Source: a virus
Lineage: Duplodnaviria; Heunggongvirae; Uroviricota; Caudoviricetes
Length of the DNA: 11,013 nucleotides
Direction: 5' to 3' (one strand)
IMG/VR virus record: IMGVR_UViG_2778261708_000011
The first letter of the stretch is position 1; every line of letters starts with the position of its first letter. This document shows positions 3,829-5,005 of this stretch, piece after piece. A program made the translations under genes and the position numbers. The notes below the pieces were generated by a model. The model was not told where the DNA came from. It did no database searches and worked only from the letters and a program-made list of their open reading frames with translations.

Positions 3829-4587
3829 TCAAGTGCCTTTCCTGGTCCAGCCATATTTTTTGAATGCAGGCGCCGCTTCATCGGTTTGTAGCCATTCTGC
3901 AAATCGACGGGTTTCATCATTTGCATCCTGACGTACTGTAATGTTCATATCACGCCATATCACGTAGTCTGGCGCTATTTCCACGACATCACCAATTTCT
4001 GGATTACTGGCTGCCCAGTCAGCCCAGGTTATCCAGACATCTGCTCCAGGCTGATTCTCAAGAGCCTTACGTGCAGTTCCGCTATTGGGCGCATATAAAA
4101 TAATATTTTTTCGGATTGCGGCGACAGTTTCTATATTCCCTTTACGTCCGGCAATATCTTCCCAGACGCCAGTGCCTGATGTATTACTGGTACCACCACC
4201 ATCATTAACAATTACGCCAATCCCAGGTCTGGTCAGGTCGTCAATACTCCGGATATTTTTAGGATTACCTTTCTTTACCAGTAAAATACTTTTTCGCAGA
4301 TAAAGAGGCTGAATATCTTTTTCACTGAAGCTGTCTTTATGGTCCCGAATGATAGCCAGAGCAGATTGTTCTGATGCGCCAAACAAGATATCTGCATTTT
4401 TTTTGGCATCTTCATTCCATTTGTTCTGTGGGCCGTAATGAACGTTCACTATAATACCTGTTTTTTCGGCATAAAGTTTGGCTGCATCAAGCAAGGCTGT
4501 ATGCGGGCCACCAGGACCATACAGATTGATATCAGCATAAGCAGCAGAAGACAGGAATATTAAAAAACCTGCCATTATGTTCCTCAT
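3829..4587 (-). CDS. Secreted periplasmic substrate-binding protein, ModA/WtpA-like (no transporter partner in window)
   Basis: 252 aa with a Sec signal peptide MRNIMAGFLIFLSSAAYA then DINLYG. Mature part resembles molybdate/tungstate-type binding proteins (...ADILFGASEQSA..., C-terminal ...APAFKKYGWT, compare ModA ...AEIFKRYGFT). SD AGGAG 5-6 nt upstream. Visibly AT-rich upstream region. Confidence 0.6.
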   Translation of the reverse strand: MRNIMAGFLIFLSSAAYADINLYGPGGPHTALLDAAKLYAEKTGIIVNVHYGPQNKWNEDAKKNADILFGASEQSALAIIRDHKDSFSEKDIQPLYLRKSILLVKKGNPKNIRSIDDLTRPGIGVIVNDGGGTSNTSGTGVWEDIAGRKGNIETVAAIRKNIILYAPNSGTARKALENQPGADVWITWADWAASNPEIGDVVEIAPDYVIWRDMNITVRQDANDETRRFAEWLQTDEAAPAFKKYGWTRKGT

Positions 4588-4751
4588 AAAAAACTCCTTT
4601 TATTGGTTATCATGAAATAAAGTTATAAACACTACAAATAATATATATTACATCCAGATAAACTTATCCGACTTTACCTCGTGCATAGCTTGTTATTTAA
4701 AGTCAACAAAATAAGGAAAATTATACGCATATTGAAGAGTATAAACCTTAC

Positions 4752-4779
4752 ATGTTGATTACATTTTTGTAATCAACAT
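4752..4779. other. 12-bp stem / 4-nt loop hairpin in the AT-rich region upstream of the binding-protein gene
   Basis: ATGTTGATTACA-TTTT-TGTAATCAACAT, perfect arms at 4752-4763 and 4768-4779. No U-tract follows on either strand, so more likely a regulator site or RNA structure than a terminator. Confidence 0.5.
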
Positions 4780-5005
4780 CCTGTTTGGAATAGCCAGCCT
4801 TTAATGGATAACTATTTCTGACAATGCAATGAGTATAATCAAGTCCATCTTCCACTGAGAATTAGAGGCGGCATGCTTTTTCCGGCTCTTGCCGGATATC
4901 CGTAATTGTCCATAATCTGCAGATTTATACCTTCTGCATGACCTGTCAGCGAAAATTTGTCCGGTGTTTCTACGGGAATGACATCAAAAGTTACACGCAC
5001 TCGCG

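Follow-up and report, generated by a model that had tools for sequence, protein, structure and literature searches.

The prophage-borne gene paa of Escherichia coli encodes a predicted periplasmic anion-binding protein of the PEB3/AcfC family and lies in a single-gene cassette shared with plasmids

The window analyzed here is the whole 11,013-nucleotide stretch of virus record IMGVR_UViG_2778261708_000011 (Caudoviricetes), which represents the early/nin region of a lambdoid prophage, read on the minus strand. An earlier reading made from the sequence alone, referred to below as the sequence-only reading, had pointed to an orphan gene between the replication genes and a hok/DUF968/rusA/Q block. 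The location was correct, but the gene is not new. The open reading frame (ORF) is almost certainly paa (also designated adfO or Z2053), a known prophage- and plasmid-borne, colonisation-associated gene of attaching-effacing (A/E) and enterotoxigenic E. coli (ETEC), as indicated by 100% DNA identity to RefSeq paa and by the literature. The features of the paa locus, in window coordinates, are as follows.

3769-4781, minus strand: paa cassette of ~1.0 kb with a single gene, shared with alleles on IncF plasmids (blastn boundaries)
3799-3822, minus strand: terminator-like hairpin CGTCCTTCAGGACG followed by a T-run, beginning 7 nucleotides (nt) past the paa stop codon; putative terminator
3829-4587, minus strand: paa ORF, ATG start, 252 amino acids (aa)
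4168-4188, minus strand: codons of the putative ligand loop SNTSGTG (S134 to G140), identical in the Paa, PEB3 and AcfC alignments
4534-4587, minus strand: predicted Sec/signal peptidase I (SPase I) signal peptide, residues 1 to 18, with cleavage between AYA and D (sequence features and alignment with PEB3)
4588-4781, minus strand: AT-rich 5' region of ~190 bp that travels with paa (GC content; homology to the plasmid alleles ends at ~4773-4791)
4594-4599, minus strand: Shine-Dalgarno sequence AAGGAG, 6 nt 5' of the ATG, kept in the plasmid alleles
4752-4779, unstranded: perfect inverted repeat ATGTTGATTACA-aaaa-TGTAATCAACAT with 12-bp arms and a 4-nt spacer, 0 expected by chance
4789-5253, minus strand: remains of a gene for a PapH-like fimbrial minor subunit, broken by a frameshift and an internal stop (RefSeq pseudogene; homology to an intact gene)

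A stretch of 1851 bp at the paa locus was 100% identical in DNA sequence to prophage DNA in the chromosomes of E. coli O157:H7, O26, O103, O111 and others, and at these identical loci RefSeq names the gene "paa: AcfC family adhesin Paa" (WP_001449026.1). Of 5426 complete E. coli genomes, 573 contain at least 80% of the stretch. Phage records of "PPompW" prophages, some of which are joined to Stx2a phages, matched at 99.9% identity and carry the label [quoted passage not shown] The gene is known from lambdoid prophages of the O-island 57 (OI-57)/CP-933O/"PPompW" type.

The gene is already known as a named virulence-associated gene of enteropathogenic E. coli (EPEC), enterohemorrhagic E. coli (EHEC), and ETEC, and its prophage location in OI-57 is documented. 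It has served as a marker of OI-57 and of A/E lesion formation (porcine EPEC) since 1999-2003 (PMC2749873, PMC11420993). In strain EDL933, adfO is z2053 of OI-57 and always co-occurs with the adjoining hok-type gene ckf (z2054) (PMC8565820). An adfO mutant had lower adherence to HeLa cells and reduced secretion of several proteins (PMC8565820). Reviews state that paa and adfO mutants lose A/E or HeLa adherence, and both PEB3 and Paa are regarded as adhesins (PMC8565820, PMC11420993).

Homology places Paa, over its full length, among the class II solute-binding proteins of the PEB3/AcfC family. The Pfam family SBP_bac_11 matched residues 20 to 247 of the 252 (E 5.5e-34; 118.3 bits versus a cut-off of 25) over profile positions 1 to 226 of 227. 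When all chains in the Protein Data Bank (PDB) were searched with phmmer, the best match was PEB3 of Campylobacter jejuni (E 1.2e-81; 52.5% identity over 238 aa, query residues 11 to 248), followed by AcfC of Vibrio cholerae (E 3.5e-81; 51.3% identity over 234 aa, query residues 16 to 248), and each of these alignments spanned the whole of mature Paa. The next PDB matches were sulfate-binding proteins, at just E 1e-4 to 1e-3 over ~100 residues, and the similarity of Paa to Sbp and CysP was weak and local, around the anion loop. The protein had been described as ModA/WtpA-type in the sequence-only reading. This description holds at the level of the superfamily and of Pfam but not at the level of the family, given E values of ~1e-81 to PEB3 and AcfC and NCBIfam scores far under the cut-offs. 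The ModA equivalog models were not reached (TIGR01256, 18.3 bits versus a cut-off of 62.5; NF002920, 17.7 versus 470), nor were the models for sulfate/thiosulfate binders (NF008022, 22.6 bits versus 288; TIGR00971, 21.5 versus 155.5; NF008106, 19 versus 308). These curated scores (18 to 23 bits against cut-offs of 62 to 470) rule out membership in the ModA, TupA, WtpA or sulfate-binder families.

Residues T136 and S137 of the SNTSGTG loop of Paa align with T138 and S139 of PEB3, and the PEB3 numbering is corroborated by the K135E variant in PDB 3fir. In work by Min et al. in 2009, mutation of T138/S139 in PEB3 reportedly abolished binding of 3-phosphoglycerate and phosphoenolpyruvate (PEP). 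An alignment of 26 sequences, designated A3, compared Paa with 25 relatives (34 to 87% identity) from Enterobacterales, Aeromonas, Francisella, Vibrio, Campylobacterales, Spirochaetes, Flavobacteria, Burkholderiales, and other taxa. The SNTSGTG loop was present in 21 of the 25 relatives, and Paa kept the residue in every one of the invariant columns (31/31). Thus, loss of ligand-contacting residues was not found at either the loop or the 31 family-invariant positions, and Paa is full length relative to both PEB3 and AcfC.

The N terminus of Paa, MRNIMAGFLIFLSSAAYA followed by D, combines a basic residue, a 13-residue hydrophobic core (mean Kyte-Doolittle value, 2.1) and an A-x-A site, with no lipobox cysteine in the signal peptide. 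The mature chains in the PEB3 crystal structures 2hxw and 3fj7 begin at the residue aligned to D19 of Paa, which supports cleavage between A18 and D19, and an A-x-A site followed by D or E is common to the relatives in A3. Paa is predicted to be exported via Sec and not to be lipidated. The ORF, the N-terminal features and the mature start of PEB3 all agree with the earlier description of a 252-aa protein bearing a signal peptide.

No gene for an ABC permease or ATPase was found in the window, either in the ORF list or with Pfam, as the sequence-only reading had also stated. The surroundings of 33 PEB3/AcfC/Paa loci (34 to 87% identity) were screened with flanks of up to 6 kb per side, as far as the contig reached, and ATPases were scored as ORFs that had both a Walker A motif and the ABC signature motif (LSGGQ). 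An importer-type ABC ATPase was not detected within 6 kb at any of the loci (0/33). The control consisted of distant ModA/Sbp-like SBP_bac_11 loci (22 to 32% identity), 14/27 of which had a same-strand ATPase 0.8 to 2.1 kb downstream (within 3.5 kb), and the difference between the two sets was significant (Fisher p = 1.2e-6). The control loci came from the same scan as the family loci, and they show that this crude screen works. A 487-aa ATPase near four Vibrio loci was rejected as a transporter partner; it is an ABC-F protein with ABC_tran_Xtn. Because no locus of the family had a linked ABC importer, orphan status is a trait of the PEB3/AcfC/Paa family, and the phage copy did not lose a transporter. 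The alternative that paa is a truncated fragment of a transporter operon is ruled out, as Paa is full length and the family stands alone in all loci sampled.

Signaling genes were found beside some members of the family. V. cholerae acfC lies directly after the dCache-MCP chemoreceptor gene acfB, and two family loci lie directly after histidine kinase genes. The immediate same-strand neighbors also include YeiH-type (PF03601) membrane proteins (two loci) and, at one locus each, a TehA/SLAC1-type channel and two proteins of sulfur metabolism, a DsrE protein and a SoxB-like 5'-nucleotidase. Examples of such neighbors, among loci L005 to L038, are located as follows.

L017:4073-5953, L032:4288-5769, L021:4892-5890, L028:4577-5722, L030:4729-5823: neighbors of family loci

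The DNA upstream of paa was strongly AT-rich, as had been noted from the sequence alone, with a GC content of 28.5% over 4601-4800 and of 26.3% over 4588-4781, versus 49.5% in the rest of the window. That reading had treated 4588-5005 as 420 bp of non-coding DNA that formed the gene's own control region. Both parts of this claim were correct only in the paa-proximal portion: ~190 bp (4588-4781) belongs to paa and forms an AT-rich 5' region, whereas from 4789 onward a dead fimbrial gene fills most of the gap, and no consensus promoter was found on the paa strand. The extent of the paa-specific upstream DNA follows from homology to an intact fimbrial gene, which stops at ~4789, and homology to the plasmid alleles of paa, which starts at 4773-4791.

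RefSeq annotates the equivalent of 4748-5281 as a "fimbrial protein" pseudogene. Positions 4789-5253 have 85 to 86% DNA identity to an intact 588-bp gene that is second (the PapH position) in a pap-like chaperone-usher operon, which other E. coli carry on genomic islands and plasmids. The two fimbrial ORF fragments in the window have 75% and 88% amino acid identity to the intact 195-aa subunit, which itself matches the Pfam family Fimbrial. None of the rest of the pap-like operon was found in the prophage.

A scan for consensus sigma-70 promoters gave no site on the paa strand within 4588-4781. A perfect TATAAT is located at 4720-4725 without a recognisable -35 element, and a promoter of paa's own is plausible. 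The inverted repeat at 4752-4779 marks the upstream boundary of the cassette. Three plasmid alleles, which overall match the prophage allele at only 86 to 89% identity, show no change in the core of the repeat. No known regulator consensus was recognised in the repeat, which could be an operator or a recombination scar.

The cassette was defined by comparison with IncF plasmids from E. coli of porcine, bovine, and other origin (some of them ETEC plasmids with STa), which carry the 86 to 89% identical allele annotated just as "substrate-binding domain-containing protein." Boundaries from blastn against three plasmids were 3769-4781, 3769-4791, and 3805-4773. Plasmid and prophage share only 3769-4781, and the plasmid flanks consist of IncFII repA, IS1, STa, IS110, and toxin-antitoxin genes. 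The 3' arm of the terminator-like hairpin and its T-run are kept in the three plasmid alleles, two of which are without most of the 5' arm.

A search for direct or inverted repeats bracketing 3769-4781 found none, which rules out a cassette of the transposon or MITE type; the only notable element is the palindrome at 4752-4779, inside the cassette. A precise empty site between the DUF1627 gene and hok/sok was not found in the E. coli genomes searched; with a chimeric query (5286-5700 joined to 3420-3768), none of 5426 genomes covered at least 80%. The absence of both bracketing repeats and a clean junction suggests that the cassette moved by mosaic recombination rather than by transposition, and without a clean junction its origin cannot be dated from an empty site. 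The GC content of the paa coding sequence is 43.9%, versus 49.5% for the rest of the window. It is reasonable to regard paa as a moron on the basis of its composition, the terminator-like hairpin, and its position between phage modules, and in outline these features bear out the earlier proposal of horizontally acquired, lower-GC moron cargo.

Close homologues of paa with 74 to 87% identity occur in Edwardsiella (L007, L011), Citrobacter (L006), and Escherichia albertii (L005). The Edwardsiella homologue has a GC content of 48% within a locus of 62%, a contrast that indicates independent horizontal acquisition. In E. albertii, DNA similarity to paa is confined to the coding region. The homologue in Providencia alcalifaciens (L009:6001-6747, 67% identity) has an in-frame stop and is probably a pseudogene.

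The other features of the window, which are those of the lambdoid prophage, are as follows.

323-572, minus strand: three transfer RNA (tRNA) genes downstream of Q, tRNA-Arg(TCT), tRNA-Arg(TCG), and tRNA-Met(CAT) (ARAGORN)
783-1478: antiterminator Q gene
1469-1828: RusA gene
1841-2890: DUF968 gene
3338-3640, minus strand: hok/sok type I toxin-antitoxin module, "ckf" of OI-57 (Pfam HOK_GEF, E 1.7e-21; Rfam sok)
5447-6028: DUF1627 gene
6215-6880, minus strand: P-like replication gene
6669-7784, minus strand: replication gene with a DnaT domain (O-like)
8520-8927, plus strand: cI-like repressor gene
In the window, listed after the cI-like repressor gene: cro-like and YdaT-like genes

Within the toxin-antitoxin module, the hok ORF occupies 3338-3550 and the sok antisense RNA 3491-3640 (Rfam, 103.9 bits). 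A perfect 24-bp palindrome, CCGATATGGGAATTCCCATATCGG, is located at 3686-3709, in the interval from the paa cassette to the sok RNA, and is only loosely conserved in one plasmid context. The gene called as tRNA-Met(CAT) is probably of the CAT-anticodon tRNA-Ile2 type, because the gene at the corresponding position of a related prophage is annotated by RefSeq as an Ile tRNA. The P-like ORF overlaps the DnaT-domain ORF by ~210 bp, and the true start of P is therefore probably internal. The DnaT-like gene is intact in the window and is interrupted by IS1203 in strain PV15-279.

Among the mechanistic options, we consider it most probable (probability of roughly 0.55) that Paa is a periplasmic anion-binding protein that acts via a partner in the host, with adherence and secretion changed indirectly. 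Cleavage of the signal peptide between A18 and D19 would leave mature Paa in the periplasm, where its two lobes would close on a small anionic ligand via the SNTSGTG loop. By analogy with PEB3, the ligand may be phosphate or a phosphorylated three-carbon acid; by analogy with the proposal for AcfC, it may instead be a compound that carries sulfate. Liganded Paa would then act through a chemoreceptor, a sensor kinase, or a non-cognate transporter, and such a partner would most likely be supplied by the host because the loci of the family are without an ABC transporter of their own. The phenotypes in adherence and colonisation would be mainly indirect rather than due to direct binding of a surface receptor.

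Several points weigh against this interpretation. Published work calls Paa an adhesin, and the adhesion phenotypes of PEB3 and Paa are poorly explained by a purely periplasmic role (PMC8565820, PMC11420993). The count of 0/33 comes from a motif-based screen for ATPases with crude ORF calling, which picked up a partner at no more than about half of the control loci; unlinked transporters may exist. The neighbors in the family (YeiH-like, TehA/SLAC1-like, SoxB-like, and DsrE proteins and kinases) are heterogeneous and do not point to a single type of partner. Moreover, the consensus scan gave no promoter for paa itself. An extension of the same interpretation, tentative and clearly less probable, is that the whole PEB3/AcfC/Paa clade consists of transporter-independent co-receptors that sense ligands together with chemoreceptors or sensor kinases, or of partners of anion channels. 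In that case, E. coli would gain from the mobile paa cassette a plug-in sensor that shifts its behavior toward phosphorylated or sulfated anions derived from mucus, with the palindrome at 4752-4779 as an operator tying expression to a host signal, and "adhesin" would be a misnomer.

The name given by RefSeq, "AcfC family adhesin Paa," corresponds to a different explanation, in which Paa is a true surface adhesin that gets to the outer surface, for example by the type 2 secretion system, and directly binds a receptor on host cells or in mucus. The solute-binding fold would then serve a new purpose, as a lectin-like domain that recognizes sulfated glycans. The loss of A/E or HeLa adherence reported in reviews for paa and adfO mutants (PMC8565820, PMC11420993) fits this explanation, and so does published ELISA work in which recombinant AcfC bound heparin, chondroitin sulfate and mucin. 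However, the SPase I signal peptide is the only export feature in the Paa sequence; anchor, lipobox, beta-barrel and autotransporter module are all absent, and the small-ligand loop is conserved in A3. AcfC is described in the literature as periplasmic, and its deletion left adhesion to Caco-2 and HT-29MTX cells unchanged. Furthermore, the adfO mutant was altered in the abundance of other secreted proteins (PMC8565820), which suggests an indirect effect. Thus, it seems rather unlikely that Paa is itself a surface adhesin. Less probable still is a role in nutrient scavenging, one of the options raised in the sequence-only reading. Here Paa would pass a host-derived anion (3-phosphoglycerate, PEP, phosphate, or sulfate/thiosulfate) on to an unlinked chromosomal ABC transporter of E. 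coli. The SBP_bac_11 fold, the weak local similarity to Sbp and CysP around the anion loop, and descriptions in the literature of PEB3 as a transporter component for phosphate-containing metabolites are consistent with scavenging. Yet none of the 33 family loci, which come from many phyla, lies beside an ABC importer, which is unusual for solute-binding proteins that serve in transport; a foreign permease could accept Paa only if the interfaces matched; and Paa scored far under the family cut-offs for Sbp, CysP, and ModA. Finally, paa might be a decaying passenger without function, brought into the phage by recombination as part of a pathogenicity-island fragment that comprised a pap-like fimbrial operon and paa. 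The adjoining fimbrial gene is clearly dead, and the region is mosaic with no clean empty site in 5426 genomes. The paa ORF, however, is intact, full length, and 100% conserved across the O157, O26, O103, and O111 lineages; it has kept all family-invariant residues, an independent 86 to 89% identical allele with the same boundaries is kept on plasmids, and mutant phenotypes have been published (PMC8565820). Detection of Paa in lysogens along with a colonisation defect in clean deletion mutants has reportedly been described for related strains. These points make a functionless passenger highly improbable.

As a discovery, the gene carries little weight, as paa/adfO has been known by name as a virulence marker of EPEC, EHEC, and ETEC since 1999-2003 and two close homologues have crystal structures. 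The useful corrections are the assignment to the PEB3/AcfC rather than the ModA/WtpA family, the finding that a dead fimbrial gene makes up most of what had been taken as the control region, and the recognition that transporter absence is a family trait and not a result of phage capture. Mildly new are the defined 1.0-kb cassette with a conserved palindrome at its boundary and the family-wide absence of linked ABC transporters (33 loci). Together with the chemoreceptor and kinase neighbors, this absence sharpens the question of how a soluble periplasmic binding protein yields an adherence phenotype.

The closest known system is Paa/AdfO of E. coli O157:H7 (Z2053 in OI-57/CP-933O; Paa of porcine EPEC O45), which is the same gene, with 100% nucleotide identity including the flanks. 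The neighbors of paa in OI-57 match those in the window: the hok-type "ckf" lies downstream of paa, and upstream are the fimbrial pseudogene and the gene for DUF1627. Nevertheless, the 11-kb window is a mosaic variant (best overall match, 96.6%), and it does not have the IS1203 insertion that strain PV15-279 carries.

PEB3 of C. jejuni (PDB 2hxw, 3fjg, 3fjm, 3fir, and 3fj7) shares with Paa the class II fold family, the SNTSGTG loop, and the PNSG(S/T)ARK segment. PEB3 is chromosomal, N-glycosylated, epsilonproteobacterial, and BumSR-regulated, whereas Paa is phage- or plasmid-borne in E. coli, and K135 of PEB3 aligns with T133 of Paa. AcfC of V. cholerae (VC_0841; PDB 4jb7) is, like Paa, a colonisation factor encoded on a mobile pathogenicity element without an adjacent ABC transporter. 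However, the chemoreceptor gene acfB adjoins acfC in an operon, and paa has no signaling gene beside it. ModA, WtpA, and TupA, as well as Sbp and CysP, share with Paa the Pfam family SBP_bac_11, the two-lobe class II architecture, and a Ser/Thr/Gly anion loop, but their similarity to Paa is remote, and Paa is without a permease/ATPase operon. Among lambdoid morons, bor and lom of lambda and the cargo of Stx phages resemble paa in being single non-phage genes of deviating GC content that lie between conserved modules and aid host virulence. In contrast to these, the paa cassette also occurs with the same boundaries on IncF plasmids and hence is not phage specific, and its own promoter is putative.

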